Both the position numbers and the translations under genes were made by a program. Under the pieces are notes generated by a model, which saw only the letters and a list, made by a program, of their open reading frames with translations, had not been told where the DNA came from and searched no databases. From a virus, in IMG/VR virus record IMGVR_UViG_3300042505_000752, positions 32,001-96,000 of that record: DNA of 64,000 nt; one strand, given 5' to 3'. Shown here piece after piece: positions 14,751 through 48,900 of this stretch (positions are counted from its first letter, which is position 1; each line of letters opens with the position of its first letter).

Positions 14751-14892
14751 CGTGCCTTCCTCCGCTCCCATAACTTGGGACTAAGTTCATGACTTTATGA
14801 AGTATACCTGGTCTAATGCCTATATTTTGAACAGGTGAAACTTACCTGTAACTATTGTGACCGATTATTGCTATATCCTAGTGGAACAACTG

Positions 14893-26363: not shown

Positions 26364-26394
26364 ACCGTTCCCTCGTAGATCATAAGATACATTA

Positions 26395-26601
26395 GTGTTG
26401 ACCAAAGCCTCAGAGGTACATGTGAAAAATTTTCTATTAAAATTTAAAGGCAAACCATGGCGCACAATGGCTGCGGACACTTTAATGATAACATTTATAG
26501 TGCTTACAAGTATTGGAGCATACATGATAGCACCGCCAGTTGGACTAATTACTGGCGGCGCATGTTGTGGCTTATACGGCTTTCTTTTGGGGTCTGAATA
26601 A
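26395..26601 (+). CDS. Small membrane protein upstream of portal
   Basis: Two hydrophobic segments; this position before the portal is common in HK97-type heads. Confidence 0.5.
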   Translation: MLTKASEVHVKNFLLKFKGKPWRTMAADTLMITFIVLTSIGAYMIAPPVGLITGGACCGLYGFLLGSE

Positions 26602-32233: not shown

Positions 32234-32265
32234 TCTCAAACTCAAATCAACGAAAGGAATCATTC

Positions 32266-32894: not shown

Positions 32895-34832
32895 TTGGAA
32901 GATAGTAGCCGCAGGGAAAATCATCCTGACTGGGTTCAGGCAAGGGTTAAATCATTCATTCAGGACACAAAAGTTGGCACTGTCAGTTCTGGTTCTGGCG
33001 TAGGACAGGCACTACAAGGTGCAGTTTCGTATGTAACTCCTGGTGATGTTAGTGGTGTAACTAGTCCTGTTCGCTCTCGTCTTTACTCTGCCATCACTCC
33101 TGGTGGTCGCGGCTTGCGTCCTCGTGTCAATAGACCAAATGAGCGCGGATATCGTTGCCCTGAGGGATATCAGTTTGGTGGTCGTTTTACTGACTCTAAG
33201 TGGTCTACATGCGGACGACAGTTATTTGATATTCCATCACTATCACGGACTTTGCTCCAAATTGCTGATAACGCTATTCGTGCAGGGCGTGGTATTGGAT
33301 ATCAAAATCCCGACACAAATCCACTTGGCGGAGCAGAAGTTACTGGCGTTTCATTGATCCAAAGCCGTATGGCAAATGTTCCTCGTGTTGGTGCTTATGA
33401 TAAAAAGAAGCGTGACGATGGCTTAAAGGCGGCAATTGACGAGTTAGTCAATCCATTGGCTCCAGCGTCAATGATGATTCGGCGCGATGGTTTCCCAATG
33501 CAACCAGTCGTTTCTGCTGGAGAATTACGGAAAGTTCCAGACAATCGCAATATGGAAGGCGCAGTCTTTCTATTGTCTGCATCCAATATTGATTCTTTTG
33601 GTGGCGATGAATTGGGTTTATTGTCAAATACTGGCGTGAGCACTTTGATTTATGTTCTACCTAATGGTTCTACTGTTCGTATGGACAAAACCCGTGCGTT
33701 AACCGTAGGCGAACGGCGCAAGTTGGGCAAGACTGTCAGTTCGGCATCCAAGATTGACAATAGTAATGATCCATTGGCTCGTCTAAAAATGGTCATTTCA
33801 GACTCTGGTGGCGGAATTTCTATCAACAAAGATTTTTCTAAAATTCGCAATGCTGAAGAAGTTGTTGATTCAGGCAAATTTAAAGGAAAGCCTCGCTGGG
33901 TTGCTGAAGCGTTTCGCAATAGTGGCAAAAAGCGTACTGTTTCTCCCCAGTCAATTGTTGATGATTCCAAGTTGGATTCCGAAACAGAAACTCAGGCAAG
34001 TAAAAATATCAATGATGTAGAAACCGCTATTGAACATATAAACAACGGTGGAAATCTTTCTGATATTAATCCTGCTATTTTGCCTCAGGCTATTCGTCGT
34101 GCAAAAGTTTATCGTCAAAAGAATATTGGATCTGGTCGTATTCTTTTTGAGCGTACTGACGGCGGTGTTTCTTTTATAGAGGTTTCCAATGGAAAGCGCC
34201 TTGAGCATCTTGGTGCCCATTTTTCTGCCGCTATCGCTGAACATCTTGAATTGCCTACTCCTAAAATCCGCATCATGGGTGAAGGAGACAATCGTCCTTA
34301 CCTCGTTCAGAATATTGATACTGTCGTGCCAAATGGCAAATTACAATCTATGAAGTTGACAGATATGCCAGCCAAAGACCTTGCTGGTATTTTTGTTTCT
34401 GATTACTTGACAGATGTTCGCAAACGAAATCCTTCTACTGTTTCGGCTGTTTCTGCTGATGGTAAAGTTCGCGCAATTGCAACGATGAATGCCCCCTCAT
34501 CATTGGCTGGTTTATCTGCTGAAGAAATGATTAAGCGTCGTTCCATTGTTATTGGCGATTGGGCAAAATCAGATGGAAATAATATCCTAAAAGCCATCCA
34601 AAATCGCAATGAAGAAGTTCGTCGTCAAATTCTGGCTGTTTATGAAGATTTAATTCAACGAGCACGCGCTTTTAAATGGGATTCTTACATTAAGCAACTA
34701 CGGTTAGACGGTAAACTTTCTAGTGCAGAACAAAAGCATATGGATATTGTGAAATCTCTATATGACCAAAGACTAGACAATTTAGCCAAGTCTAAGGAAT
34801 CTTTTGCTAATATTTTGGAGTTAGGCAAATGA
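32895..34832 (+). CDS. Leader-motif protein with degenerate HipA/PI4K-like (pseudo)kinase domain
   Basis: YRCPEGYQFGGRFTD..WSTCG leader; AIAEHLELPTPKIR and DYLTDVRKRNPS align with the kinase motifs of the next two genes, but DRH and DxG are lost. Confidence 0.55.
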   Translation: MEDSSRRENHPDWVQARVKSFIQDTKVGTVSSGSGVGQALQGAVSYVTPGDVSGVTSPVRSRLYSAITPGGRGLRPRVNRPNERGYRCPEGYQFGGRFTDSKWSTCGRQLFDIPSLSRTLLQIADNAIRAGRGIGYQNPDTNPLGGAEVTGVSLIQSRMANVPRVGAYDKKKRDDGLKAAIDELVNPLAPASMMIRRDGFPMQPVVSAGELRKVPDNRNMEGAVFLLSASNIDSFGGDELGLLSNTGVSTLIYVLPNGSTVRMDKTRALTVGERRKLGKTVSSASKIDNSNDPLARLKMVISDSGGGISINKDFSKIRNAEEVVDSGKFKGKPRWVAEAFRNSGKKRTVSPQSIVDDSKLDSETETQASKNINDVETAIEHINNGGNLSDINPAILPQAIRRAKVYRQKNIGSGRILFERTDGGVSFIEVSNGKRLEHLGAHFSAAIAEHLELPTPKIRIMGEGDNRPYLVQNIDTVVPNGKLQSMKLTDMPAKDLAGIFVSDYLTDVRKRNPSTVSAVSADGKVRAIATMNAPSSLAGLSAEEMIKRRSIVIGDWAKSDGNNILKAIQNRNEEVRRQILAVYEDLIQRARAFKWDSYIKQLRLDGKLSSAEQKHMDIVKSLYDQRLDNLAKSKESFANILELGK

Positions 34833-37800
34833 GTAAAATAGTTCTTATTAAAGACGCAATCAAGGATGAGCCATACGCTCTTGTGTCTTACGACTCCATG
34901 GAGGTTAAGGCATTTGCGCTAACCGACGATGCCGAAGAATGGTCCGAATGGGCTAATCAGTCATGTAAAACAATTGACGAGATTCGTGAAAGTCTTACCT
35001 ATTCACTTCAGACAGAACTCCCACGACCAGCAACTGAAATTGAATTAGATGGAATTAAACAATTCACTACATCTGAGCGTTTTATTCAAATTAAGTCTGC
35101 AATTAGTGAATCAAAACTTGAAATGGTTGGCACATTTAGCCGTCAGAGTCGTCGCTTTGCCGTAAAGACATTGAAAGATTCGGAACTTCCAGAAAGTCCA
35201 TCTTCATTGCCTTTGACTTCTTTTAGTGCTCAAAGTCGGCAGGCAATCATTGAGTACAAGGCATTGTCTTTTAGGGCTGACAATAAGTTTTCGGCTACAG
35301 CATTTGAAGCAAAGGGTGCGCGAGCATTATGGGACCCCGCCCTTGGACCGTCTGGTGGATGGCGATGCCCTCAAGGTTCTCAGTTTGGTGGATACATCAC
35401 TGACCGCTTCGGTCGTGGATGCGGTGGAGGGGTTCTCCGTCGTGTTGGGCGAGCATTAGTTGATGCAGGTCGTGGAATTGACAAATTGGGCGAGGCACGA
35501 GGCGCTCGTCGTCTTGGTCGTGCCGCTGATAAACTCAATGATAAGCCTGGTGGCGGACGCGCTCAGCGTGCCGTTGGTAATGCGGCTAACGCTCTTGAGC
35601 GTGGCGCGCAGGGTCTGGTTGGAGACTACAAGCCTGGTGATGCTGTTTCGCGTCGTCGTGGCGTGTCTGCCCCAGATATTGCTCCCGAGCGTAAGAAGGA
35701 AATTGATGACCGCCTGATGGCTATTCAGGCAGAACTTGATGATCTGGTTGATCAGCCCCCGACTGGCGATATTGAGAAGCGCATTACAGAACTTACCAAT
35801 GAAAATAAGAAATTGCGTCGCGAGCGAGATGGCGCAATGCCAAAGCGTGTTTCTGCCGTCAAGCCCGCTCCATCAAAGCGCCGTGTTGTTAAGCCTGAGG
35901 CTGGACGCAATGAGCGAGTTCAAGGCAAGCGCCCTGTAAAGAAGCCAGTTACGCAAGGTCGTCGTCAGGGCGTTCTAGATCGTGCCGCTCAACGACTCGT
36001 TGGGGAATATGACCCATCAGAGTATAAGCCTGGTGACAAAAAGCGCATTAAAGACCGCGAAAATCGTTACGCAAAAGTTTCTGATGAAGCATTGATTAAT
36101 GCGCTAAAGATGAACTCGCCCAAGGCTATTAAGCCGGGTCAGAATCGTGACATTGAGGCAAACAAGCGTCAAGAGCGACTTGAAGTTCTTCAGGAAATGC
36201 TCAATCGTGGCATTGATATTCCAGAACAATTTAAGAAAGAAGTCAAGCAGTATCGCTTAAAGCCCCAGCGTAAAAAGCGTGGTGCTAAGGCTGGTAGTCT
36301 CCGTAGTCGTGCCGCCAACGCCCTAGAGCGCGCCGCTCAGCGAGTTCTTGCTGGAGACAAGAATAAGAAGCGTCGTGACCGTAGTCGTCGTAAGCGTGCC
36401 GCTGATGCTTTTGAGCGTGGCGCACAGCGAATTCTTGATGGCAAGAAAAAGCCCAAAAAACAAGATAATCGCAAAAAGCCACAACCAAACGGTGGGCTTA
36501 ACCTACCTGGCGGTGGTCGTGGGATTATTGAACCGCGAGATACTGAAGGTTTGCCAAAACCAGGCATGGGGGGTATGCGAAAGCCTGGTGAAGGTCAAAT
36601 TACTCCTGAAGAACTTCAAGATTTAATAGATAGTAATTTAGGTATTACTGGTCTTTCCGAATTACGCAAACAGTTCAAAGATTATGACGATGCCCAGATT
36701 GACAATTTTTTAAGTCGTTTTGTTAAAGCACGCGAAAAAATGAATAATGATAATCCAGAAAGATTAAAACTTGACAAGTGGATCATCAATCTTGAAATGG
36801 AAAAAACCGCTCGTGAACTTGATCGCCTAAAGAATGGCAAGAGAGAACGAGACAATCAGCGTGTCCGTGCCCGTCGTGCCGTTACCGCTCAAAGCGCATT
36901 TACTCCCATTCGTCGTCCACGCCCAAAGAAAATGAAAGGCGACAAGATTGCTTGGGATGATATGGATGCCCAGCAAAAAGCACGGATGCGTAATCGTGCT
37001 ATCGCTGAACTTGACGACCTTGATGCAAGTTGGCGCAAGCGTCTTGGCTTAAAGAGTAATGAAAAACTCACTGACAAGATGATTCGTGACTACATTAAAG
37101 AACGCGAGAACAACAAGCCTGGTGCTTACATCGGAGTTCTTAAGGCTAACGCCAATGACTGGGGCGTTCTCAAGGACTATGCAAATGACCTTGAAAATGG
37201 GGATATTCTTAATAATCTTGGTCCCAAGCGACGCAAGACACTCGTTGACGACTTGAACAATGCTTCTACCCCCAAGCGTGTCAAGACACCAAGTTCACCA
37301 CGCCCCAAGTCTGCCCCAAGTGCAAAAAAGCGTGATGGTCTAAACGATAATGAAAAGAACCGTCTCAAAGAACTTGACGGACCTGAATTTGATAACCAAG
37401 TAGAAGCATTTGACGAAGCAGAGCGTTTGGCTAAAGCAAATAATGAATCTATGGTTGCGTTTGAACAAGATGGAAAATTCCGTGTTGTTAAGGCGCAAGA
37501 CTTTAACGATCTACTAGATGGTATTGATGATGATAGTCGTATGCAAAATGCGATTGGTAGTGTTCGCCATTTTGATGCCAATGGCAACGAGAGCAAGATT
37601 GATGTTTCCGAGTCTGCTCGCGTTAAGCAATCAATTAAAGAATCACTTGGCATTGATGCTCCAGAATCGCTTGGTGGCTCAATACCCGATGATCGGTCAC
37701 GACGAAATGTGCGTAATCGGTTCCCGAATAATGGACTCCCCGATAAGGCATTCTGGCGAGATAAAGACTGGAAGCCTCGTACTGGTGGAGATGATGCAGA

Positions 37801-40800
37801 AAAGCATGAGCGTAGGTTTGGTCGCTACTTTGATTCCGACGGAAACATCAATGCTCGTGGTCGCTTTGTTAATGGTCAGTTAGAACAAGAGCGAGCAGAA
37901 AAGGCAAAGCCTAGGTTTAGCAAGACACCAGAATCTGTGATTCCAGAATCTGGTCGTAGAAAAACATCTACTTATAGTTTTGGTAAACTTCAAGTTTTTG
38001 GCGAGGATAATAACGGAAGAGTTCTTTGGAAGGACAAAGATGGCTTTGTTATCCCTGACAACATCGTAAATGATGAAGCCGTACGACAACGCTACATGCG
38101 TTATGCAAAAGAGGGGCGAGATGCCTATCTAAATGCAGAATTTGCACGAAATCTTGGCAAAAAAATTGATGACCTTTTAGTTAATAACGACCCTGAGAAG
38201 CGTCGTGAATTAAGGAATAATCTTCAAAATCTTATTGAAGATCGGCGTTTGTTGATTTCACGAGAAAACCCTGTTGCGGTTCGTGGTTCGTGGGCTGGGG
38301 AATTAGTTGCATTGCAAAATATGCTTAATGAGTTGGATTCTCATCCAAACGCAGTAGATATTTCTCCAATGAAAAATGAAGGACTTGATTCCTTACCCAA
38401 GGCTTCTATTAAGCGTCGCGATTCATCCCTTATTAAATTGCCTGAATTTAAAAAAGAAAAAGAAGTATTCGTTCAATATTATGACCTTCGTAATGACAGG
38501 TTTAAAGCACATCTTGAAAACGACAGGCTTGATGATGCAAATATCATGATTGAAGGACTTGCTAACGAAATTGATGGGCATAACAGGATGCTGGCTGACC
38601 CTGCAATGCCTGAAGAAGACAGGGTTAAAATTTTAGCGCGCCGTTCAGCCGCTCTTGAAAAAGTAGGTAAGTTTAACCAAGATTTGCAACTTCGTATGGA
38701 TGAAATTAATAAACGAATTGGCGCAGAAAACGCTGCACGATGGGGAATCCCAAGACTTATGACCAACCCCGAAGGTAACGCAACTCCAGATAGTGCTGAG
38801 GCACGACTTGCAATCCTTGGAAATAATTACCAGATTAAATTTGCAAAAAACATTCGTCTTGAAGGAGCAAAAGACCGCGCTGCGGAACTTGCAAAAGAAA
38901 AAAATGATGGCGAAGGAATCTATGTTACAAAAGATATAAAGAGTGGTAAATTCTTTTTATTAACTCGGGCTGATTTTGAAGAAGCAGTTAAAAACGATGC
39001 TTTTTCTGAAAATTATGTTGTTGATGCTGTCGTCTATGCCGCAAAGACCCCAGCGCCACCAAAGCCTCCTAGCGTTGCAAGAATTCCTGATTTGAATGAT
39101 CCGTTTGATGGATTTAAATCGCGTTTTAGTCCTATGGATTTTGATGCGGATGATAAAGATAATCCAATCAAGGCAGCAAGAAAATATGCTGTTGAATTTG
39201 ATAGTGATTTTGTAGTTGCACAACGCTTGAATGATGGTAAGCAATTTGTTCTTGATGCCCGTGACTGGAACGACTTTGTAAACTCTCCAAAAATAAATAG
39301 TGATGATTTTGTCGCCGTAGGTATTTTTGGTGGGTATGGCAAAGATACCGATGGAATGCCCAAGTTAAATGATGGCAAAAAACGACTTATTGACGAAATG
39401 CAAAGTAGAGATTTAGGTCGCGTTTTCCCCAAGGGAAATCGTGTTTTTGGTAGTGGTGATAAAAAGGCAAGAGAACGCGCTCAAAAATTTGCCAAGCAGG
39501 GAGCAGATGATGATGGGCGCAATCGTTATGTTATTGATACGGGCAAACAATACATGGTCGTCAGTGAAAAAGAATATCAAGAACTACTAGCGGAATTTAA
39601 CAATAATGAACAACGCTTAAACGCGACGCTTTCTCCCGAGAAGTTTATTAGAGAACGAAAAGGCAACAATGCAGTAGGTAGGGATGCCCTTCTTGGTCCT
39701 CAACAAATGCCAATTGATGCCGACGAGTACAAGGATGCTGTCATTGCGGTGCATGACGGCAATGGTGCTATTGACCAAATACCTGATGCACTATTTGCTG
39801 CTGTTATATTTGACGAGAATCTTGAAGATACTATTCGTCCCGGAAATAGGGTGGCTCCGCAACCATTAATAAATGATGACGGCAGTCAAGCCACATTTGA
39901 GGATATTTTTAGTGGACGAATGAAACCAGGCTACGGCGCTGAATTTGAAAACAAACGATTTAAATTTAAAAACTTTAAAGATGCGGGCGATTCATACGGT
40001 GGAATTTGGTCAGTATATAGAGTTGAGGACAAGCAGACTGGAGAAATTTGGTTTATTAAATCTTCCACATATGGTGCCAATGACGCAATGCTGGAAGATA
40101 TCGGCATGGAGGCTGCTGGTATTTTTAATTTTGCCGCCAAGAATGATGCAAAGCAAATAAGAATTTCCGCTCCGATTGCTGTTGAAAAAAATGGCAGGCA
40201 AGTCAGATGGACTGCCATGCGCGATATTGATCAATGGGATGCTCCAAATGGTGAGGCTTTAACTTGGGTAGATGCTGGCGATGGTGGAAATATTCAAGGG
40301 CGAAGTGTCAGCCTTGAAGATATGGCTGCCGTTTTAGTTCTTGACTATGTTCTAGATAACCAAGATAGGCATGCAGGAAACTTTAAAATTGCGACTGATT
40401 CAAATGGCGTTCAGCGTCTAGGTGTCATTGACAATGGGCTAATGTTTGGCGGACGGGCATATGACATGCTTCCACTAAGTCACGATGATGAAGTCACTCC
40501 AATGGGTCTTAATGAACTTGCCGAACAAAGAAAAGCCTTAGACCTTGAGGGTTACAAAAAAGGTACTGGCCATATCTTATTACGGAGTCTACCAAGTACA
40601 TTTATTGATCGTCTTCGTCAGAGTCAATTTGATAGAGATGAATTTAATCTTCAGGTAAAATACTCAATTGAAACAATGCGAGAAAGTATTGACAGAATTC
40701 TTGATGAGCAAAGACTAAAGGGTAAGGGCATTTCACTTAGCGGTACAGAACTAGCACATTTAAAGGCAATGAAATTAGTTGCTGACGCTCGCTTGAAATA

Positions 40801-40948
40801 TCTTGAATCAAACCCAGATGCATTCCTTGAGGTTTTTAACATAACTGGTTCAATACCTAGTCCAATAAATGCCCCAATGTCGCCAATTCGTCGTCCTAGG
40901 GGATTAACTGGTCGTCAGGTTGGTTTGCCATCGGGTGGAGGATTATAA
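34829..40948 (+). CDS. 2039-aa leader-motif protein with C-terminal HipA/PI3K-PI4K-like kinase domain
   Basis: WRCPQGSQFGGYITDRFGRGCGGG leader; WFIK (beta3 Lys), LEDIG, DYVLDNQDRHAGN (40364-40381), VIDNG (40430-40438). Confidence 0.75.
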   Translation: MSKIVLIKDAIKDEPYALVSYDSMEVKAFALTDDAEEWSEWANQSCKTIDEIRESLTYSLQTELPRPATEIELDGIKQFTTSERFIQIKSAISESKLEMVGTFSRQSRRFAVKTLKDSELPESPSSLPLTSFSAQSRQAIIEYKALSFRADNKFSATAFEAKGARALWDPALGPSGGWRCPQGSQFGGYITDRFGRGCGGGVLRRVGRALVDAGRGIDKLGEARGARRLGRAADKLNDKPGGGRAQRAVGNAANALERGAQGLVGDYKPGDAVSRRRGVSAPDIAPERKKEIDDRLMAIQAELDDLVDQPPTGDIEKRITELTNENKKLRRERDGAMPKRVSAVKPAPSKRRVVKPEAGRNERVQGKRPVKKPVTQGRRQGVLDRAAQRLVGEYDPSEYKPGDKKRIKDRENRYAKVSDEALINALKMNSPKAIKPGQNRDIEANKRQERLEVLQEMLNRGIDIPEQFKKEVKQYRLKPQRKKRGAKAGSLRSRAANALERAAQRVLAGDKNKKRRDRSRRKRAADAFERGAQRILDGKKKPKKQDNRKKPQPNGGLNLPGGGRGIIEPRDTEGLPKPGMGGMRKPGEGQITPEELQDLIDSNLGITGLSELRKQFKDYDDAQIDNFLSRFVKAREKMNNDNPERLKLDKWIINLEMEKTARELDRLKNGKRERDNQRVRARRAVTAQSAFTPIRRPRPKKMKGDKIAWDDMDAQQKARMRNRAIAELDDLDASWRKRLGLKSNEKLTDKMIRDYIKERENNKPGAYIGVLKANANDWGVLKDYANDLENGDILNNLGPKRRKTLVDDLNNASTPKRVKTPSSPRPKSAPSAKKRDGLNDNEKNRLKELDGPEFDNQVEAFDEAERLAKANNESMVAFEQDGKFRVVKAQDFNDLLDGIDDDSRMQNAIGSVRHFDANGNESKIDVSESARVKQSIKESLGIDAPESLGGSIPDDRSRRNVRNRFPNNGLPDKAFWRDKDWKPRTGGDDAEKHERRFGRYFDSDGNINARGRFVNGQLEQERAEKAKPRFSKTPESVIPESGRRKTSTYSFGKLQVFGEDNNGRVLWKDKDGFVIPDNIVNDEAVRQRYMRYAKEGRDAYLNAEFARNLGKKIDDLLVNNDPEKRRELRNNLQNLIEDRRLLISRENPVAVRGSWAGELVALQNMLNELDSHPNAVDISPMKNEGLDSLPKASIKRRDSSLIKLPEFKKEKEVFVQYYDLRNDRFKAHLENDRLDDANIMIEGLANEIDGHNRMLADPAMPEEDRVKILARRSAALEKVGKFNQDLQLRMDEINKRIGAENAARWGIPRLMTNPEGNATPDSAEARLAILGNNYQIKFAKNIRLEGAKDRAAELAKEKNDGEGIYVTKDIKSGKFFLLTRADFEEAVKNDAFSENYVVDAVVYAAKTPAPPKPPSVARIPDLNDPFDGFKSRFSPMDFDADDKDNPIKAARKYAVEFDSDFVVAQRLNDGKQFVLDARDWNDFVNSPKINSDDFVAVGIFGGYGKDTDGMPKLNDGKKRLIDEMQSRDLGRVFPKGNRVFGSGDKKARERAQKFAKQGADDDGRNRYVIDTGKQYMVVSEKEYQELLAEFNNNEQRLNATLSPEKFIRERKGNNAVGRDALLGPQQMPIDADEYKDAVIAVHDGNGAIDQIPDALFAAVIFDENLEDTIRPGNRVAPQPLINDDGSQATFEDIFSGRMKPGYGAEFENKRFKFKNFKDAGDSYGGIWSVYRVEDKQTGEIWFIKSSTYGANDAMLEDIGMEAAGIFNFAAKNDAKQIRISAPIAVEKNGRQVRWTAMRDIDQWDAPNGEALTWVDAGDGGNIQGRSVSLEDMAAVLVLDYVLDNQDRHAGNFKIATDSNGVQRLGVIDNGLMFGGRAYDMLPLSHDDEVTPMGLNELAEQRKALDLEGYKKGTGHILLRSLPSTFIDRLRQSQFDRDEFNLQVKYSIETMRESIDRILDEQRLKGKGISLSGTELAHLKAMKLVADARLKYLESNPDAFLEVFNITGSIPSPINAPMSPIRRPRGLTGRQVGLPSGGGL

Positions 40949-40949
40949 A

Positions 40950-41291
40950 ATGGAACAAGATATTCAAAGAACAGAAAAATCGTTAAAAGATTTAAAAAAG
41001 GAAATTACATATCCTGCCGTTATTTACCATGAATCAGAAGCGGGAAATATTGCTCCAATTTTAGTACTTGAACGAAAAGGCAGAATTACTCATTATTTTT
41101 GGGATGATGTAAATCGCTATGATTCTGATATGTACAATGTTGTTGGCGATATTGTAAAACTATCTACAAATTCACAGTCAACGGCAAAGCAATTCTTTAT
41201 TGACAATGCCACTCCTGTAGATATTAATAGAGTTATAGATCAGGCTAAGAAAAATAAGATAGTCAAACCAGAACCTAAAGGCAAAAAATAA
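40950..41291 (+). CDS. Small protein, candidate immunity/antitoxin of the upstream kinase
   Basis: ATG one base after the kinase stop; RBS GGAGG; start 40950 preferred over 40920. Confidence 0.5.
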   Translation: MEQDIQRTEKSLKDLKKEITYPAVIYHESEAGNIAPILVLERKGRITHYFWDDVNRYDSDMYNVVGDIVKLSTNSQSTAKQFFIDNATPVDINRVIDQAKKNKIVKPEPKGKK

Positions 41292-41293
41292 AA

Positions 41294-44200
41294 ATGACTA
41301 CCGATTGCGAAACTTGTCGTCCTCTTGTAAAGGTCATGAACCCCCAGATGTCTACTGACCGCAGGCGGTTTATGATTGAGAGCAAGGCTGCCGAATATCG
41401 CAAACACATGGGTCAGCCGAGCGGTTTGTTGCAAAAGGGTGCTCGGGCAATATTTGACCCTAAACTTGGTCCGTCTGGTGGATATCGCTGTCCTGAAGGG
41501 AGCCAGTTTGGTGGTTACATTACCGACCGCTTCGGCAGAGGCTGTGGTGGGGGTATTATTCGCCGTGTCGGGCGAGCCTTTGGAAAACTAGGTCGTGGAT
41601 TAGATAACATTGCAGACAGGCGTGACCGTAGTCGTTTGGGTCGTGCCGTCAATCGCCGTAGCAAGCCCAATCGCGTTACTCGCGCCGCTGGTGCTCTAGA
41701 GCGTGGAGCACAAAGACTTGTTGGCGAATACAAGCCTGGTGACTACAAACCAGGTGACGGCGGTCGTCGTAATAGGCGCAACCTACCTGGTGGATCATCC
41801 CTGAGGCGTTCTGCTGTTCCACGCAAACCTAAGCGTGAACGCAAACTGCCCAAAGACGGGGACAAGAAGCCTCGCACCCAAGGGGCAACTCCCAAAAAGC
41901 GCCCCATTGTTGAACGCGCTGCTGAAGGTCTAGAACGCGCTGCTCAGCGTGTTCTAGATGAAGATCGCAAGAAAAGAACACAAGGCGCTAAGCCTGCCAA
42001 ACCCAAGAAGCCTGTTGCTCCTAAGGTTCCTTCGCTGAAGCCAAATCTCTCAGAAGATAAAAAACCAAACATCACTGACATCAATGATATTGACTGGGAT
42101 AATTTAACTCCCGAACAGCGTGACGAAATTCAAGGCATCCGTTGGGATGCTTTTAGTGAACTTGAAGCCGAAATGTCCAAGTACATGGGTGTTCCAGCGG
42201 CTCGTATGGACCCTGATGGGTTTGTAAAACGAAATGAAAAAAATAAAAATGTTGAAAAATATGCAGGGGATGCTCGTAAGTGGAGACAATTACAAAACGA
42301 CTTTGAAGATATGCCAGCAGAAGCAATTAAAGAGATTGACTGGACCGACGAAGAACGCAAGAAAATTCTTGATGTCGTTAATGGGAATGCAAAGCCCAAG
42401 AAGCCCAAGACCCGTGGTGCTGACTTCTGGGAACGACGCAAGAATAACAAGCCGATTAAGCCTGAAGAATTAGATGTTGAAGATGCCCCAGAGATTTTTT
42501 CAAGCAAGCCAGACGGCGTACCCGAAAGTGCTCGTAATGTTAAGGCTTGGGAGCAGGCGTTTAAGGATGAAATAGATAAGTATTTTGCTGAAAAAAATGT
42601 AGATCGCCTTGAAAAATTAAAAAAGACAATAGATTTGATTCTTAACAAAGATGTCATGAATCTATCTTCTGCTATGCGTCGGATGCTTCAGGAAAAAATT
42701 AATGACATAGAGAAAAAGACTGTTGCCCTTCGTGCACGAAAAGCACGAGGTGCACGCACTGCCACACCAAAACCAAAACTTCCTAGTCTTGTAGGTAAGC
42801 CAGTAAAGCGTAATCCAAAAATTAATCGTATTAAAGATAATGTTATTGATGCTTTGCGTATCAACAATATGCGTGACAATGCCATGGGCGACTTTGCACG
42901 CGACGCAATTGGCGATGGCTTAATTGCTTTTCCTGAGAATATTTTTAATGATGACATCAAAAATGTGACAGATGCAGTGAAGTGGCTTGATGATGGAAAA
43001 TCATTATACGAAATTCCACAACATTATTGGGCTGAAGCAATAAATGAACATGTAGACAGTCGTAATCCTGGTCCAAAGCAATATAAAAGAATTGATATCA
43101 ATAATCCAGGTGCTATGAAATCTATTAACATGTATGAAAAATTAAATCAAGATGGCAGTGGTAGTGGGACTGGTGTTGTTTTTGCTCGTGCTCCAGGTAA
43201 TGCACGGGATGGCATGGGCGAAGTTTTAGGTCAGCAAGTCCTCAATGCCCTTGGCATGAATGTTGCTCCAGCGCGGTTTGATGGAATTGTAAGAGAACAA
43301 AATAATGGCAGAGATGTACCAGTTGCTGTAATGCCATTTGCTTGGAACAGGGCTGCTGCTGGAAAAATAGACCGAGGTAAGGCTGGTTATAACTTTGACA
43401 GGTCTGTCTTTGACCAATTTGAAGATAAAGCGTTACCTATGCGGTTAGCAAATTTATTAGGTAATTATTTTATGGGAATTAGCGACAGGCACCACAATAA
43501 TGGGATGGCAGGGGTTATTGATGGTCAGCCTTATATTGTCCCTATTGACCTTGGGTGGAACGGCATAAAAAGAAAATTTTACGAGTATCAAGGCGATGAT
43601 TGGCTTCATGGATTTTCAATGGACCCCGACTTGGTTGGCGTTATTAAGTCTCATTTAGCAAAACTTGAACCCAAAGAGGCTGAAAAACAACGCAATAAAA
43701 TAATTGAAGTTTTTGATGGCATGATCTTACGAGGCGATGCAATACTTGCTCAAGGAAAAGATAAATTTATTGAGGATGCCATAGGAATGATGCATCTTGG
43801 TGCTGATGCAGTGCCAAATATGCAAATGCGTAATGGAGTTGACAGAAAAGAACTTGAATCTATGATGAAAGAAAAAGCATTAGGCATATTTACTGCTATG
43901 GAATCCAATATTGCATCATTGAAAAAAGAAAGAACAGATTTATTTGCTAAATGGGGATTAAAAAATGCTCCCCCATTAGGAGTTCTTGAAGTAGTTAGCA
44001 AACCAAAGCCAAAAAACCCCAAGGCACCTAAGCCAAAAGCGCCCGCCCCTGCAAAGATTACCAATAATGTGGCTTCAAAGGGTAAGAAAATTGGACCGCT
44101 CCCAGCACTTGTTGTAGCAGAACCACAAAAACGATACAACAAGGTTCCTGTACTTGGTAAAGCATCTGGAGACAATCCCCTACCAATTCCAGATGACATT

Positions 44201-45274
44201 GTTAATTCTGAAATTACAAACTTGGATGACGCAGTTAGATGGCTTGATGAGGGTAATCGTATTTCTCAAGTTCCTCAAAAGTTTTGGGCGCAAGCCATAA
44301 ACGGTCATGTTGATGGAAATGCACCCAATAAACAATTTACTCGCCTTGCACAACAAGGTGGAATTATAAAAATGACGCAAATTTTTGGTGCTCTTGATAA
44401 CGATGGTAATTTTGTAAATCAGGGATTCTTATTGCAATACGATGGTGATGACCCCAAAAACGCTGTTGAGGTTTTTGCTCTTAACATTATGCATGGGCTT
44501 GGATTAAATGTTGAGCCTGCACGCTTTGACGGAGTTTTTAGACCTGACGAAGTTCCAGTTGCAGTTATGCCATTTGCTTGGAACAACGCACCAGAAGGTG
44601 ATGTTGTTCTTCCAAAAGATTTACCCCAGTGGGATGTAAATCGTTCTGATATTTATGTTGATGAAGACTATATTCCAAATTTTGAACATCAACAATTTGA
44701 CAATTTGCCAGACAAGGCATACCCGCAAAGAATTGCCGCAATGATAGGTAACTTCATTTTGCAAATTCCAGATAGACATAATCAAAACGGCATGGGGGGA
44801 ATGTTTGGTGGCAAGCCCCATGTTGTTCCAATTGACTTAGGTTGGGCTGGAAAAAATGGATATATTGGAAATATGAACATGTTCTTTTCACAACAATTCA
44901 AAATTGATAGGACTTTTGATGCGGACAACGGAGACATGGAGCCAGATTTCCGTAAAAATATTTCAAATCATTGGTCATCAATAAGTGATGATGCCGAAAG
45001 AGTTAGACAACAAAAAGTTATTGTTGATCTTTATGATGACATGATCGCTCGTGGAAAAGCAATGACTCAAGATAAAGATAAATTCATTAATGACCTGTTA
45101 ATTGGACTTCACGATGCAGGAAATAACGCAATAATTAGAAACAAAGCAGAACAAGAAGCAAGAAATATGCTCAAGATGATGATGAGGTCAATTGCTAATA
45201 TGGAAAGCGAAAGAGATAATTACCTTAAAAGTATTTTTAGTATTGATGAAGCCGTTATAAAAGGTGGTGCATGA
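41294..45274 (+). CDS. 1326-aa leader-motif protein with two tandem HipA/PI4K-like kinase domains
   Basis: YRCPEGSQFGGYITDRFGRGCGGG leader; GISDRHHNN..PIDLGW (43484-43558) and QIPDRHNQN..PIDLGW (44771-44845). Confidence 0.75.
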   Translation: MTTDCETCRPLVKVMNPQMSTDRRRFMIESKAAEYRKHMGQPSGLLQKGARAIFDPKLGPSGGYRCPEGSQFGGYITDRFGRGCGGGIIRRVGRAFGKLGRGLDNIADRRDRSRLGRAVNRRSKPNRVTRAAGALERGAQRLVGEYKPGDYKPGDGGRRNRRNLPGGSSLRRSAVPRKPKRERKLPKDGDKKPRTQGATPKKRPIVERAAEGLERAAQRVLDEDRKKRTQGAKPAKPKKPVAPKVPSLKPNLSEDKKPNITDINDIDWDNLTPEQRDEIQGIRWDAFSELEAEMSKYMGVPAARMDPDGFVKRNEKNKNVEKYAGDARKWRQLQNDFEDMPAEAIKEIDWTDEERKKILDVVNGNAKPKKPKTRGADFWERRKNNKPIKPEELDVEDAPEIFSSKPDGVPESARNVKAWEQAFKDEIDKYFAEKNVDRLEKLKKTIDLILNKDVMNLSSAMRRMLQEKINDIEKKTVALRARKARGARTATPKPKLPSLVGKPVKRNPKINRIKDNVIDALRINNMRDNAMGDFARDAIGDGLIAFPENIFNDDIKNVTDAVKWLDDGKSLYEIPQHYWAEAINEHVDSRNPGPKQYKRIDINNPGAMKSINMYEKLNQDGSGSGTGVVFARAPGNARDGMGEVLGQQVLNALGMNVAPARFDGIVREQNNGRDVPVAVMPFAWNRAAAGKIDRGKAGYNFDRSVFDQFEDKALPMRLANLLGNYFMGISDRHHNNGMAGVIDGQPYIVPIDLGWNGIKRKFYEYQGDDWLHGFSMDPDLVGVIKSHLAKLEPKEAEKQRNKIIEVFDGMILRGDAILAQGKDKFIEDAIGMMHLGADAVPNMQMRNGVDRKELESMMKEKALGIFTAMESNIASLKKERTDLFAKWGLKNAPPLGVLEVVSKPKPKNPKAPKPKAPAPAKITNNVASKGKKIGPLPALVVAEPQKRYNKVPVLGKASGDNPLPIPDDIVNSEITNLDDAVRWLDEGNRISQVPQKFWAQAINGHVDGNAPNKQFTRLAQQGGIIKMTQIFGALDNDGNFVNQGFLLQYDGDDPKNAVEVFALNIMHGLGLNVEPARFDGVFRPDEVPVAVMPFAWNNAPEGDVVLPKDLPQWDVNRSDIYVDEDYIPNFEHQQFDNLPDKAYPQRIAAMIGNFILQIPDRHNQNGMGGMFGGKPHVVPIDLGWAGKNGYIGNMNMFFSQQFKIDRTFDADNGDMEPDFRKNISNHWSSISDDAERVRQQKVIVDLYDDMIARGKAMTQDKDKFINDLLIGLHDAGNNAIIRNKAEQEARNMLKMMMRSIANMESERDNYLKSIFSIDEAVIKGGA

Positions 45275-45666
45275 TGGCTCAATATTTAATTATTTTTGGA
45301 CCTTTTGGAACACCACAGAATAATTCTAAAAATGCTGTTGCTTTTAAAACTTCTGGTTCAAATATTCAAATTACCTGTTCTAAAAACAAAATGAATTATT
45401 GGAAAAATCGCATTAATGAATCTTTAGTTTTGGCAAGTTCATTTAAAGGTAATGAAGTTCAATTAGACAATTTTGCAAAAAACAGTAGTTATGTATCTTC
45501 TATATTTTTTGATGATTCTAATTATGATGAGTACAAAAAACTTTTTGAATCAGTTAATGGTGTTAAAAGTGTAGTAAAAATTGACAGAGTACCAACTTAT
45601 GACGAACCAGATTTTGACCCTAAAAAAGTTGAAAATTTCTATAAAAAGTTTGAGAAGAAAAAATAA
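45271..45666 (+). CDS. Small protein, candidate immunity protein 1 (paralogue of 45666..45995)
   Basis: ATGA overlap with the double-kinase gene; clear similarity to the next ORF. Confidence 0.55.
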   Translation: MMAQYLIIFGPFGTPQNNSKNAVAFKTSGSNIQITCSKNKMNYWKNRINESLVLASSFKGNEVQLDNFAKNSSYVSSIFFDDSNYDEYKKLFESVNGVKSVVKIDRVPTYDEPDFDPKKVENFYKKFEKKK

Positions 45667-45995
45667 TGGCTGAGTATCTTATTTATCATGGCGACTTTGG
45701 TTCCAGTATTGACGACCCCGGTCTTATGTCTATTAAGGCTGATGGGGTTAAGTTAACCATTCGTGCATCTCGCAACATGATGGAAGAGTGGAAGGGTCGT
45801 ATTGAAAATTCTAGAGTTTTGCAGGGTTCGGTAAATGACGGTCAAGTAGACCTTGAAAGATATATTTTTGCTAACAAGTATTCCACATGGACATTCTTTA
45901 CTCAAGAAGAATTTGATGACTATAAAAAAGTGTATAATTCTGTAAAAGGTTCAACTGTAGTTGTGACTATCAAGCCAGAGAAAAAGGGCGACTGA
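45666..45995 (+). CDS. Small protein, candidate immunity protein 2 (paralogue of 45271..45666)
   Basis: MAEYLIYHGDFG...WKGRIENSRVL...FDDYKKVYNSVKG versus MAQYLIIFGPFG...WKNRINESLVL...YDEYKKLFESVNG. Confidence 0.55.
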   Translation: MAEYLIYHGDFGSSIDDPGLMSIKADGVKLTIRASRNMMEEWKGRIENSRVLQGSVNDGQVDLERYIFANKYSTWTFFTQEEFDDYKKVYNSVKGSTVVVTIKPEKKGD

Positions 45996-45996
45996 A

Positions 45997-48900
45997 ATGG
46001 CAAAGATGCGCGCGTCATCCAAAGAAGATGCAATGAAGATTGCACGCTATGTTGGATGTTCTGGCGCACACCAAGATAAGAAGGGGAATTGGATACCTTG
46101 TGCCAATCCCGAAGATCTTGTAGAGATTCTAGATAAATCTGCAAGAAACTCTACTGAAAAATTAACTAAAAAGAAGCGTCGTCGGTTTGTTAATGGTCAA
46201 TGGGAAAGACTCGGAGAACGAGGTCCTATCAGTATTGACACAATTGACGGCGGTGGACTTGTGTCTGGTATGGGCAAGTCCTTGACTCAATGGTTTAAAG
46301 AAGAATGGGTTGATATTTCAAGACCCAAAAAAGGTGGCGGTTTTGAGCCGTGCGGACGAGATGATGCAGACAAGGGCAAATACCCCAAGTGCGTTCCAGC
46401 ATCACGAGCCAGCAATATGTCAGAAGAAGAAATTCGCTCTGCTGTTTCACGGAAAAGAAGAGCAGAATCTACACAGAGTAGAGATGACAAAAAGCCTATT
46501 TATGTTCCTACTGATAAAAAGAACGACCCATTCGTTTTGGATGAAAAATCAGCAACACCCACAAATCCAGAACTTTATGCACGGGTTAAGGCTGAAGCAA
46601 AAAAGAAGTTTGATGTTTACCCCTCTGCCTATGCAAACGCTTGGTTAGTAAGGGAATACAAAAAACGAGGTGGTGGATATCGTTCTGAAAAAGCAGACGA
46701 TGGCGATTATGAAGAATCTGTTGAAGATCTTACCGAAATGCAATTATCCGATTTTATTGATTGGGTAGATCAAAAAGAAAAAGCAGAAAAAGTATGCCCT
46801 CCAGCAACTTCTGACATTGGCTTAAATATCAAGAATCGTCAGAATGCCATCAATACTGCTGGTTATGGTCCCCTAAACCCGAAAGAACCCAATGTGGACT
46901 TTTGGGAAAAGAAGGCAAAACGCTGGTCCGTAACGATTGAAGAATCCAAGAAACAAAAGTGCGGAAACTGTGCTGTCTTTATTAAGACTCCTCGGATTCT
47001 TGAATGCATTGAGTCAGGTCTTGGTAATGAGGCTGGAGACACTGCTTGGGATGCAATCAATGCTGGCGACCTTGGATATTGCGAGGCATTTGACTTCAAG
47101 TGTGCTTCTGCCCGTACCTGTGATGCATGGGTCGGTGGAGGTCCAGTAACTGTTGAAAAGGGCAAGCAAGAGGAGAAGGCAGAAACTTCCACGATTATCA
47201 TTGGTCGTGCCAAGCCTCGCATTGGCGATCCTGATGTTTACACCGACCCCAACTCTGCTCGTCTGCGTTCTCGTAAACTTGGTTGCATTGGTATCGCTCG
47301 TAGAGAAACGCCAGATGGAGAAGTTGTCTGGACACCCTGCACAAATATCTCAGATCAACGCAGATACCAAGGCGAAACACCATTAGGTCAGCGAGATGAG
47401 GCTCGGCGTTTTGCTGACAGACTTGCTGAAGTTGGCGGTCCTGATCGTAAGCGCCGACGCATGCGTAAGTATAAGAGCCTTGAATTTGCAACAGACATTA
47501 AGGCATTTCGGACCTTAGGTTCAAGTATGAATAGTCGCGGCATTAGCGGTAATTGTCGCCAATTTACTGGCATTGATGGTGACGGAGATGGATTCGTATG
47601 TAATCCCGCAACTCGCGAGGACGACTTGCCCCTTACGGACACTCGGAAAATTTTTAAGCGTGGCGGTAAAATGCTGTCAAGGGAAGAATTGGTAGAGCAA
47701 GACGAAACAATGCTTAATATGTTTGCCAAAGGTGAACCTTTATCGCGAATTGCTGAAGAAGTAGGTCTTGACAAAAGAGAAGTTGAATTTTTAATTAAAA
47801 ATTTCCGTAAACAACAACCAAAAGTTGCATTTACAATATTCAACAATCGCGATATCAATATTCAAAAAAAACGCGAAGAGCGCAGAAAATTAGCGCTTGA
47901 GAATGTTAGGCGAGAGGCAAATGCCAACCGCAAATTAAATGCAAGAGGCGAAGACCCTACGCCAGAATCTGATGATGATCTTGATTTTACTCTTGACCCA
48001 GATAAGGTTCCGCAATATCTTAAAAAGAATTTTGCTAAATATATGCAACGCTTAAAAGACCCTGAATTTGCTGATGAAATAAAAAAAATTGCTGATGATT
48101 TGCGTGCTGGTCTTGGTTTGGCTGGAACGGCAAAAAAATACAAACGAGACTCAGCATTTATAGAAATTGTTCGTAGAAATGAAAAAATTACAAAAACAAA
48201 AAAACTACAAAGAGAACTCCTAGGCGTTCCTGATTTTAACAATGATACCGATGACCCCGATTTCACTCTTGACCCCGACAAAGTTCCAAAATTTTTACAA
48301 AGGAATTTGCTTAACAATATTAGGATAGCAAGAAGTCCTGAGTTTGCGGAAGAAAGAAAGAAAATTGCTGACGACTTACGCCTTGGTCTTGGAATTGCTT
48401 CCGTAAGATTGAAATACAAACGAGACTCGGCATTTGTAGACATAGTTCGCAGGCTTGAAAAAATTCCAAAATCAAGAGAAAACAAAAAAGTTGATCCTAA
48501 AATTAGACAGGATGTTGTTGACCTTGTAGATAAATTGATTAAAGATGATAATCCATTCATGTCGGTTGCCGAAATCGCAAAAGAATTTAAAATTACTGGA
48601 ATAGATGCGCGTCGGATTATTAATGCTGCAAAATTGGAAAAATATTTTGATTTGCACAATAAATATACAGACGCAAAAAGAAAAAAACTTTTTGCTGAAG
48701 TTGCTGAACTTCATAAACTTGATCTTACATATGATGAAATTGGCAAGCGTTTAGGAATTAGTGAAAACTCAGTAAATCACATTGCGAAAAAAATGAAACT
48801 ACCTAAAAGAAAGTTTGTGACAAAACGGAATGTTCCTCAAGTAATAAGGAGGGGTGGTGATGTAATTCCTCGTTCTTTAGCAATGAAACAAAATAAAGAA

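Follow-up and report, generated by a model that had tools for sequence, protein, structure and literature searches.

An array of two-cysteine-tagged, kinase-like proteins and paired small genes in the head module of an uncultured phage

Jamet et al. (2017, PMC5576092) described the MuF polymorphic toxins of temperate phages. These toxins are encoded in the head gene region, a conserved N-terminal part presumably directs them into the capsid, and their variable C-terminal enzymatic domain is followed by a small gene that is taken as an immunity gene. The text of Jamet et al. nowhere uses the word "kinase". Iyer et al. (2017, PMC5512222) described the polyvalent proteins of phages and conjugative elements. 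In the part of their paper used here, these are large proteins encoded among virion genes, and packaging and injection along with the DNA are predicted for them. They show cassette-like variation and include protein kinases in their repertoire; precedents for capsid-packed, injected phage enzymes are also given. One chain holds several different effector domains, and the kinase, from phages of Verrucomicrobia, Chlamydia and Bacteroidetes, is a truncated Ser/Thr/Tyr kinase without a C-lobe. The same part describes neither a dedicated N-terminal tag nor a one-to-one small partner gene. Benler et al. (2021, PMC8008677) found that the "Gratiaviridae", uncultured tailed gut phages with Bacteroidetes hosts, encode an atypical HipA-like kinase in the interval from the portal to the major capsid gene. 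This kinase is single and stands beside an AAA ATPase and a glycosyltransferase; the relevant section of the paper reads it as superinfection exclusion and mentions no shared tag, array or partner gene.

An atypical kinase fold is also found in HipA/HipB, HipBST, CotH, CtkA, PI4KIIα and MavQ, and the HipA kinases are toxins restrained by a small protein. T4 Alt, the T4 internal proteins and the N4 virion RNA polymerase are enzymes packed in the capsid and injected. T7 gp0.7 is a phage kinase for host takeover that is made after infection and is absent from the virion. These four have no sequence relationship to the proteins reported here, and they lack a cognate small partner and cassette exchange.

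We analysed a window of 64,000 nt from the 128,966-bp record of an uncultured phage, a ~129-kb myovirus that carries WhiB genes and whose host is probably an actinobacterium. All features given below are on the plus strand, with positions counted in the window. The portal gene (26604..28874; Pfam Phage_portal, E = 5e-49; phrog_2662, E = 2.3e-100) opens the head module, and its product has a C-terminal MuF domain (Phage_Mu_F, E = 7.5e-7). The next gene encodes an S78 prohead serine protease with a long C-terminal extension (28968..30653; Peptidase_S78, E = 2.8e-11; phrog_80, E = 5e-31). The major capsid protein has the HK97 fold (49402..50700; Phage_capsid, E = 4e-48) and shares 50% identity with its counterparts in Brevibacterium and Gordonia myoviruses; its gene is preceded by a 160-nt gap and served by a ribosome-binding site of its own. 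A sequence-only reading had placed three large ORFs (645, 2039 and 1326 aa) between protease and capsid gene, and coordinates and Pfam matches agree with it. The interval also holds conserved ORFs of 521 and 207 aa (30668..32889) and a 1080-aa multi-HTH protein (45997..49239; Pfam DUF5872, DUF3721, HTH_7 and Sigma70_r4), all three of which that reading had missed. The first two stand ahead of the tagged proteins in related phages and are syntenic in most of 62 related loci. The multi-HTH gene ends the coupled array, and in related loci its homologue lies directly 5' of the capsid gene.

The three large proteins have in common an N-terminal module of about 60 residues with two cysteines (RCPxGxxFGGxxTD..CG), here called the tag. 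The leader RCPxGxQFGG..TD..CG had been noticed in all three, and we found it once in each (aa 87, 179 and 65; profile E = 3e-27 to 4e-26). A six-frame scan of the window and of the whole 128,966-bp record found no further copies. P0001 (645 aa, 32895..34832) carries a type-A tag (nt 33093-33272); its N-terminal domain spans aa 22-340 (nt 32958-33914), and a pseudokinase (nt 33984-34829) forms its C-terminal domain. In other phages the P0001-type N-domain is fused 5' of a second tag and a kinase in a single polypeptide. P0002 (2039 aa, 34829..40948) has a type-B tag (nt 35303-35482) and, at its C-terminal end, the kinase domain K2 (nt 39647-40945; DRHAGN at aa 1846, IDNG at aa 1867); its region from aa ~200 to ~700 is strongly basic. 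In P0003 (1326 aa, 41294..45274), a type-B tag (nt 41426-41605) and a basic region are joined to a tandem pair of kinase domains, K3 (nt 42896-44005; DRHHNN and IDLG) and K4 (nt 44153-45271; DRHNQN and IDLG). The region after the tag is a low-complexity stretch, its net charge ranging from +9 to +21 per 100 aa. Since the portal protein bears the MuF domain and none of the tagged proteins gives a MuF match, the carrier is a non-MuF one, as had been proposed. Unlike the MuF toxins, which are likewise phage-encoded in the head gene region, the tagged proteins have a 60-residue two-cysteine module with a basic region as carrier and form arrays with as many as four members in one phage.

The helical caps quoted in the sequence-only reading are present in four homologous C-terminal domains, and the most divergent of these, that of the 645-aa protein, is linked to the kinase family by HHalign (probability 99.2%, E = 2.9e-19). 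The same reading had assigned DRHxxN and DxG to all four. This assignment held for K2, K3 and K4 and failed for the 645-aa protein, which reads D-V-R-K-R-N-P-S-T and T-M-N-A at the catalytic-loop and metal sites. Since the catalytic D, H and N and the metal-binding D are all substituted, the P0001 domain is a conserved pseudokinase and, judged from its sequence, catalytically dead. In 56 diverse domains of the family, the D, R, H and N of DRHxxN and the D of IDxG were invariant (56/56), the alphaC Glu was retained in 55 and the beta3 Lys in 50. The beta3 position is Arg in K3 and Gln in K4, so their activity is less certain than that of K2.

Pfam PI3_PI4_kinase (PF00454) matched 31 of these 56 domains and HipA_2 matched 8, and K2 alone reached 29.6 bits with PF00454 (cut-off, 27.1 bits). 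The K2 structure was predicted with a pLDDT of 86.5 and a pTM of 0.87. A Foldseek search of the PDB with this model gave 56 matches at E ≤ 1e-3, of which the best 50 were all kinase or kinase-fold; PI4KIIα (1.7e-5), CotH (7e-5) and CtkA (7.8e-5) came first. The VIA fold search gave CotH (Z = 15.9, rmsd 3.7 Å over 271 residues), CtkA (Z = 12.6), HipA (12.5), PI4KIIα (12.3) and MavQ (11.7), and among the matches listed (at least 50 chains) all were kinases. The model, both fold searches and Pfam therefore agree with the HipA/CtkA/PI3K-PI4K fold suggested earlier. Our results show that the C-terminal domains are atypical protein-kinase-like domains, three with intact catalytic loops and one a pseudokinase.

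The HipA, HipBST, CotH, CtkA, PI4KIIα and MavQ kinases have this fold in common with the present domains (VIA Z = 10.7-15.9), along with the DxHxxN-type catalytic loop and the metal-binding Asp. However, sequence identity is just 8-17%, and, unlike these, the kinase here is the C-terminal domain of a phage head-module protein of 1300-2000 aa. The loci have no HipB-like HTH antitoxin and, by Pfam, no HipA N-terminal domain, and the partner gene is downstream, whereas it is upstream in HipA/HipB systems. Set against the polyvalent proteins as outlined in the part of PMC5512222 used above, the tagged proteins hold a single type of enzyme in each chain, and their kinase is a full PI3/4K-HipA-CotH-like domain with helical cap and tail.

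A search with the 60-residue tag profile found 316 cluster representatives (clustered at 50% identity, members uncultured) at E ≤ 1e-3 and 203 at E ≤ 1e-10. Alternative C-termini, a search for which had been proposed, were indeed found: the kinase was present in 79 of the 147 tagged representatives examined, and tagged proteins with a non-kinase C-terminus occurred as well. Tag and kinase were both absent from every cultured phage in INPHARED. In 62 viral loci of IMG/VR, the tagged proteins were in the same head-module slot, in the order portal, protease, 521-aa homologue, type-A tag protein, one to four units of a tagged protein with a small ORF, HTH protein and capsid. The cultured relative DalanDe, a Gordonia phage, also has genes unrelated to the head in the interval from portal to capsid gene, among them those for lysin B, an RNA ligase and "minor tail proteins", so position alone is a weak argument for a virion location. 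The kinases could be late cytoplasmic enzymes that are never packaged and remodel the infected cell late, for instance by superinfection block, envelope modification or lysis timing, with the small proteins as regulators. The proposal for the "Gratiaviridae" kinase, as given in the relevant section of PMC8008677, points the same way. However, this would leave unexplained the two-cysteine N-terminal module of all the large proteins, their long basic regions and the fixed slot in 62 loci. Moreover, the BFVD matches include proteins of other phages in which a kinase-like fold is joined to a portal, MuF or ADP-ribosyltransferase protein. We consider late, unpackaged enzymes unlikely.

The small genes are tightly packed behind the kinases. 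P0004, the K2 partner (113 aa from ATG, 40950..41291), starts 1 nt after the P0002 stop codon, and P0005 (131 aa, 45271-45666) and P0006 (109 aa, 45666-45995) overlap their preceding neighbours by 4 nt and 1 nt; the junctions are ATGA and TAATG overlaps or gaps of 1-2 nt. P0005 and P0006 are paralogues (36% identity, E = 1e-20) of a family confined to phages with K3/K4-type kinases. P0004 has seven homologues (71-100% identity), none of which, like P0004 itself, has a Pfam match, and the small proteins belong to no recognisable family. The pairing of one coupled small gene per kinase, first suggested from the sequence, was borne out: one gene follows the one-kinase P0002 and two follow the two-kinase P0003. 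In the wider family, small ORFs were directly 3' of 69 of 70 kinase proteins, one behind single-kinase proteins and two behind the double-kinase protein. These ORFs diverge fast. Each intact kinase domain is therefore paired one-to-one with a fast-evolving small gene directly downstream, and the P0001 pseudokinase is followed by no small gene.

A small ORF also lies directly 3' of tagged proteins whose C-terminus is of another, non-kinase type. This fits an inhibitor and equally a dedicated folding or loading chaperone. Chaperones or loading adaptors of the C-terminal domains would account for a small ORF behind every long tagged protein and for its co-variation with the C-terminal domain, as in effector-specific chaperones of secretion systems. 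However, the P0001 pseudokinase must fold and load too, yet has no partner, and the number of small genes follows the catalytically intact domains. Immunity genes of polymorphic toxin loci typically lie downstream (PMC3482391, PMC5576092). A chaperone role is possible, though we regard it as rather doubtful.

Comparison of near-identical phages showed how these units move. The DNA of loci L042 and L046 is 93.7% identical up to the middle of an effector gene; the similarity is then lost over its C-terminal half and the small ORF, and returns at 81% from the next gene. The N-terminal 471 aa of the two proteins are 88.7% identical and their small ORFs are unrelated. Across 204 pairs of effectors whose N-termini shared at least 75% identity, small-ORF identity tracked C-terminal identity; where the latter was below 30% (102 pairs), the small ORFs were 13-26% identical. 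These results show that kinase domain and small gene are swapped as a single cassette behind a conserved N-terminus, and the polymorphic-toxin-like layout recognised earlier extends to this joint exchange. K3 and K4 are 35% identical (E = 8e-65), and in the sister lineage L003 one kinase equidistant from both is accompanied by one small ORF of the P0005/P0006 family. The two-kinase P0003 and its two paralogous small genes thus arose when kinase domain and small gene were duplicated together in this lineage.

The exchange also bears on an assembly role, in which the kinases would phosphorylate phage structural or scaffold proteins during head morphogenesis, as CotH does with spore-coat proteins. 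Bacillus CotH is the best structural match of K2, well above the next, and the kinase genes are embedded in the head operon. However, no CotH Pfam match was found in the 56 domains, and several divergent kinases per phage, cassette exchange between near-identical phages and rapid divergence of the small ORFs indicate conflict rather than a housekeeping assembly step. An assembly role is therefore improbable.

From gene position and by analogy, we infer that the tagged proteins may be packaged in the capsid, injected and toxic, and that the small ORFs may neutralise them. The array would then be a head-module cargo of tag-loaded, injected host-modifying kinases, each held by its own small protein, an interpretation to which we give about an even chance. 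The N-terminal module would load the proteins into the procapsid. After leaving the capsid along with the DNA, they would act as soon as infection begins and phosphorylate proteins of the actinobacterial host or, possibly, its phosphatidylinositol lipids. In the producing cell, the small protein would bind and silence its own kinase until assembly, as an inhibitor or immunity protein. Alternatively, toxins could be released at lysis or act in a grazer of the infected cell, with the small proteins shielding the producer. Such a "Trojan horse" has been proposed for ADP-ribosyltransferase toxins of freshwater phages, some predicted on Actinobacteria (bioRxiv 10.1101/670067). Here it is very improbable: no signal peptide or translocation domain was recognised, the present results hold no link to eukaryotic targets, and the nearest structures are the bacterial intracellular HipA and CotH as much as the eukaryote-directed CtkA and MavQ.

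The statement that no such arrangement had been described was too strong, given the precedents in the sections of PMC8008677 and PMC5512222 used above. Even so, the family looks like an undescribed one of swappable, probably virion-carried host-modifying enzymes. Tight coupling spans the entire array, beyond the small genes for which the sequence-only reading had noted it. In addition, the 521-aa protein matches, over its residues 414-482, the C-terminus of the giant "capsid maturation protease" of Gordonia phages.

The source record of the window, which covers its bases 32001-96000, is 128,966 bp in length (CheckV completeness, 87%) and belongs to a myovirus with a tail sheath gene at 13293-14771 (minus strand). 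WhiB-family genes are typical of actinobacterial phages. Two WhiB proteins are encoded in this genome (window 61507-61692, plus strand; virus record 10596-10796, minus strand), both above the Pfam cut-off, and the capsid protein is 50% identical to the capsid proteins of Brevibacterium and Gordonia myoviruses. Taken together, these features make an actinobacterial host likely.

The head module lies on the plus strand in the order portal, S78 protease, two ORFs, P0001, P0002, P0004, P0003, P0005, P0006, HTH protein and capsid. Here P0001 (645 aa), P0002 (2039 aa) and P0003 (1326 aa) are large proteins bearing a two-cysteine tag, and P0004 (113-123 aa), P0005 (131 aa) and P0006 (109 aa) are their small partners. 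The C-terminal kinase domain of P0002 is called K2, and the tandem domains of P0003 are called K3 and K4. The portal gene (26604-28874) carries a C-terminal MuF (head morphogenesis) domain according to Pfam. It is followed by the S78 prohead protease gene (28968-30653) and by two conserved ORFs of 521 and 207 aa that precede P0001. From P0001 through the HTH protein, all junctions are overlaps (ATGA, TAATG) or gaps of 1-2 nt. The small genes are coupled behind the two large proteins, one per kinase domain, as the sequence-only reading had noted. The major capsid gene (49402-50700) is preceded by a 160-nt gap, and the large terminase gene (25059-26525, minus strand) adjoins the portal. The tagged genes thus sit among virion genes, with portal and protease on one side and capsid on the other.

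We found that the RCPxGxQFGG..TD..CG leader, described earlier as shared by the three large proteins, occurs once in each of them, at residue 87 (P0001), 179 (P0002) and 65 (P0003). No further copy of the tag was detected in the window (six frames) or in the whole virus record. The tag has two flavours, type A in P0001 (ERGYRCPxGxxFGGRFTDS..STCG) and type B in P0002 and P0003 (GG[WY]RCPxGxxxGGxITDRFGRxCG), and both are conserved across phages. A very basic stretch follows the tag. An A-L-E-R-G-A-Q-like repeat behind the tag was considered as a general prohead-protease site or as part of the tag, and was rejected because only 19 of 147 representatives have it.

The tag profile (60 positions) was searched against 1.84 billion proteins, and it retrieved 316 representatives, that is, clusters at 50% identity, at E ≤ 1 × 10−3 and 203 at E ≤ 1 × 10−10. 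A simple HMM detected a kinase in 79 of the 147 representatives examined, almost always at the C-terminus, and some of the remainder are divergent kinases. Six tagged proteins that were first scored as non-kinase proved to be of this type (HHalign 100%, E = 2.5 × 10−42). The search for alternative C-termini with a leader profile, which had been suggested from the sequence, did yield one: 45 of the 147 representatives (17 unique loci) share a different, non-kinase C-terminal domain in which neither kinase similarity nor a Pfam match was found. A few representatives are singletons by their C-terminus, and Pfam gave no further domains in seven non-kinase tagged proteins. Elsewhere among phages, the first 340 residues of P0001 form one polypeptide with a second tag and a kinase that come after them, which links P0001 functionally to its neighbours. 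No match to K3+K4, the tag region, P0001 or K2 was found by tblastn among 50,697 deposited phage genomes. Among PHROGs, K2 matches one family only, the unnamed phrog_3162, and P0006 weakly matches the unnamed phrog_24917 (E = 0.0037); neither P0006 nor the N-terminal part of P0001 gave a usable result in the ESM Atlas.

The four C-terminal domains can be aligned with one another, helical cap included, which agrees with the earlier description of four homologous domains. The same description assigned DRHxxN and DNG/DLG motifs to each domain. This is correct for K2 (DRHAGN/IDNG), K3 (DRHHNN/IDLG) and K4 (DRHNQN/IDLG), but wrong for one of the four, because the P0001 domain is a predicted pseudokinase. 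That domain aligns with the kinase family at 99.2% by HHalign (E = 2.9 × 10−19, 272 columns), and in it the catalytic Asp is replaced by Lys, the His by Asn, the Asn by Thr and the metal-binding Asp by Thr. Because these replacements are kept in its orthologues, we consider it, on its sequence, to be a conserved pseudokinase. In the 56 aligned kinase domains, K2-K4 included, the D, R, H and N of DRHxxN and the metal-binding Asp of IDxG (the DFG equivalent) show no variation; 55 of the domains have the alphaC Glu, and 50 have the ATP-anchoring beta3 Lys that pairs with it. K2 has both of the latter residues, and K3 and K4 keep the Glu. Since the beta3 Lys column holds Arg in K3 and Gln in K4, K2 is the kinase of this phage for which activity can be proposed most safely. 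K3 and K4 (42896-45271, plus strand) have a conserved Lys one strand before beta3 (A-M-K-S and I-I-K-M, placed by alignment only), which may recall kinases that supply their lysine from another strand.

PF00454 (PI3_PI4_kinase; gathering cut-off, 27.1 bits) was matched by 31 of the 56 non-redundant family domains (E ≤ 0.01; best, 9.1 × 10−9) and HipA_2 by eight. The K2 domain alone scored 29.6 bits, the full-length P0002 remained sub-threshold at 25.6 bits (E = 1.3 × 10−5), and the full-length P0003 had no PF00454 match. A model of K2 was built from the 56 trimmed domains with pLDDT 86.5 and pTM 0.87; it replaced a first model of K4, built from 16 sequences, which had pLDDT 59.5 and weak Foldseek matches, although kinases were among the best 32 VIA matches listed for it. 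Against the PDB, Foldseek returned 56 matches to the K2 model at E ≤ 1 × 10−3, and the best 50 of the 56 are all kinases or kinase folds, led by PI4KIIα, CotH and CtkA. In the exhaustive VIA comparison, the best 50 chains are all kinases, with CotH first (Z 15.9, rmsd 3.7 Å over 271 residues), followed by CtkA (12.6), HipA (12.5), PI4KIIα (12.3) and MavQ (11.7). Based on the Pfam matches, the invariant catalytic residues, the confident K2 model and its structural matches, we regard the predicted kinase fold as established. The proposed HipA/CtkA/PI3K-PI4K fold is thereby borne out, and the family is placed among the atypical kinases.

Some K2-type kinases (490-840 aa) have no tag. Among the database proteins P0029-P0034, those that were read (P0029, P0030 and P0032) start instead with another conserved N-terminus, E-P-Y-D-P-D-A-I-D-A-D-x-D-G-I-V-Q-E-G-T. 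At the related viral loci L030, L037, L073 and L074, tag-less kinases precede the gene of the type-A tag protein, and every one of them has a small ORF of its own. By eye, residues ~855-1607 of P0002 (window 37391-39650, plus strand) contain four copies of a ~45-residue module, an A/K/E-rich helix followed by a hydrophobic strand-turn-strand ending in D/E-F/W/Y; BLAST self-comparison of P0002 did not detect this repeat. One copy of the module also stands just before the kinase in tag-less relatives. K2-type proteins end in a conserved G-G-L, in the forms P-S-G-G-G-L, S-G-G-L and T-G-G-L (P0002, window ~40920-40945; P0030, P0032).

We then compared the window with 62 IMG/VR loci retrieved with the tag, not all of which are independent; a metagenome scan added three loci only. 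The common order is portal, protease, a homologue of the 521-aa ORF, variable ORFs, a type-A tag protein, one to four units, an HTH protein and capsid. Each unit consists of a tagged protein (850-2100 aa) and, behind it, a small ORF (77-144 aa). A small ORF follows 69 of 70 kinase-bearing proteins, and in the single-kinase cases there is exactly one in 66 of 68. The double-kinase protein has two small ORFs (n = 2, the window and its close relative L014, a single lineage). Short type-A proteins, the pseudokinase P0001 included, have no small ORF, and long tagged proteins with a non-kinase C-terminus have one too.

Two related loci, L042 and L046, share 93.7% DNA identity over an 11-kb stretch that ends midway through the second effector gene. 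Across the C-terminal half of the effector and the small ORF the similarity vanishes, and it returns at 81% from the exact start of the next gene. Residues 1-471 of the two effectors are 88.7% identical, whereas the small ORFs are unrelated and the C-terminal halves are two kinase subtypes with ~30% identity over 137 residues. An exchange of kinase for non-kinase was rejected for this pair, because the presumed non-kinase proteins proved by HHalign to be divergent kinases; the swap is between kinase subtypes. We also examined 204 effector pairs, the two members coming from different loci and sharing at least 75% identity in their first 300 residues; the pairs are non-independent and some occupy paralogous slots. 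Small-ORF identity was found to track the identity of the C-terminal 330 residues, being 13-26% where the latter is below 30% (102 pairs), 50-79% at 50-70% and 95-100% above 90%. The direction of this co-variation is unambiguous. In the window, identity is 35% between K3 and K4 and 36% between P0005 and P0006. Sister lineage L003 carries just one kinase, equidistant from the two (36.8% to K3, 36.6% to K4), and just one small ORF of the P0005/P0006 family. Together, cassette exchange, co-variation and co-duplication strongly support the view that the small gene is cognate to the C-terminal domain, with which it is exchanged and duplicated. The small ORFs are fast-evolving; in iterated searches among 248 of them, P0004 joined its orthologue only and P0005/P0006 five others only. 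Neither a Pfam match nor an HTH was found in P0004-P0006.

In the window phage, the usual MuF protein is fused to the portal, being neither free nor on a toxin. MuF toxins carry an N-terminal MuF domain (PF04233), whereas P0001-P0003 have no MuF match and the domain is on the portal C-terminus; they are therefore not MuF toxins, and the carrier is non-MuF, as had been supposed. They share with MuF toxins a variable C-terminal domain and a cognate downstream small gene that are swapped as a cassette, and the layout works like polymorphic toxin systems (Zhang et al. 2012, PMC3482391), which upholds the reading of the locus as such a layout. The polyvalent proteins (Iyer et al. 2017, PMC5512222) are alike in context and presumed delivery. 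They combine several different effector domains per chain, whereas the window proteins have one enzyme type per chain, and the window system differs further in its kinase family, dedicated tag and partner gene. In P0002 and P0003, and also in three giant relatives that reach 4528 aa, Pfam recognised no type of domain other than kinase. HipA systems have an HTH antitoxin (HipB/HipS) in the operon, whereas the partners here are downstream and without HTH; despite the structural likeness of HipA to K2, the small share of domains that match HipA_2 also speaks against membership. CotH is the best structural match, yet its identity is 8% and it is absent from the Pfam families of the 56 domains. In the open-access literature, we found neither the tag nor the partner genes described, nor any account that places this kinase family in phage heads. 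The arrangement is not wholly without parallel, however, because a kinase of the HipA family, encoded between portal and capsid, was reported for 'Gratiaviridae' and given another interpretation (PMC8008677).

It is plausible that the tagged proteins are loaded in the capsid and injected. This reading is favoured by their operon position, by the tag with its very basic stretch, by precedents and by kinase-like folds on head proteins. The precedents are T4 Alt, MuF toxins and polyvalent proteins (PMC5576092, PMC5512222). In BFVD, the K2 model matched predicted kinase-like folds fused to head proteins from other phages, of portal, MuF and ADP-ribosyltransferase type (E from 1 × 10−6 to 1 × 10−3). 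Such folds are seen in a 1340-aa 'ADP-ribosyltransferase' of Mycobacterium phage Onyinye and a 1479-aa protein of Gordonia phage GodonK, which are possible cultured entry points, and also in portal- or MuF-annotated proteins of uncultured phages. Counting against packaging, clearly non-head genes lie between portal and capsid in cultured relatives.

We infer that the kinases do harm, or that they at least have to be silenced, and the small proteins could plausibly be their silencers. In favour of an inhibitor role, there are as many partners as domains with intact catalytic residues, and no partner accompanies the pseudokinase. The small proteins might instead be chaperones, which would fit most of the same data and counts against an inhibitor role. 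On the most far-reaching reading, the two-cysteine RCPxG module would be a capsid-loading tag of a previously unknown kind in lytic phages of freshwater actinobacteria. These phages would use it to package and deliver a variable kinase repertoire, which co-evolving small inhibitors would keep inactive in the producer cell, and within seconds of the start of infection at least some of the kinases would target phosphatidylinositol lipids of the actinobacterial host or defence proteins. We advance this combination of tag, injected kinases, inhibitors and targets tentatively, and put its chances somewhat below even. If true, it would be a phage equivalent of the effector-immunity arsenals of secretion systems.

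A few enzymes are already known to travel in phage capsids, and the same route is presumed for MuF toxins and polyvalent proteins. The feature found here is real and non-random and belongs with the phage-borne polymorphic effector systems. It adds a large family, with at least 316 sequence clusters and ~60 viral contigs, that has its own carrier module. Besides this new module, the analysis shows atypical kinases whose catalytic residues are conserved, a pseudokinase that is itself conserved, and a fixed place in the head operon. The kinase family has not earlier been tied to virions, and it strictly combines one small partner gene per enzyme domain, with cassette exchange. If injected, the proteins would be a source of new kinase-inhibitor pairs and a means of studying host takeover by phages of the most abundant freshwater bacteria, and the tag could serve as a tool for loading capsid cargo. 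The partner-less pseudokinase and the co-duplicated pair of kinases and small genes lead to clean, testable predictions.

The final gene of the translationally coupled array encodes a 1080-aa multi-HTH protein (45997-49239, plus strand) with HTH_7, sigma-70 region 4, GerE, DUF5872 and DUF3721. At most of the related loci, a homologue lies immediately 5' of the capsid gene, and the protein may be additional cargo or a late regulator. Residues 414-482 of the 521-aa ORF (window 31907-32113, plus strand) form a ~70-residue motif that is 53-61% identical to the C-terminal end of a giant Gordonia 'capsid maturation protease', ORFs of Microbacterium jumbo phages and an ORF of Bacteroides phage BS162P1; in two Microbacterium phages, 45% identity extends across a longer stretch. 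The BS162P1 copy is a stand-alone small ORF amid unannotated genes and is uninformative. The motif is a mobile domain of wide distribution. A glycosyltransferase gene (16608-17690, minus strand) and a PAPS-reductase-like gene (18575-19738, minus strand), which separate the tail genes from the packaging genes, look like auxiliary metabolic genes.
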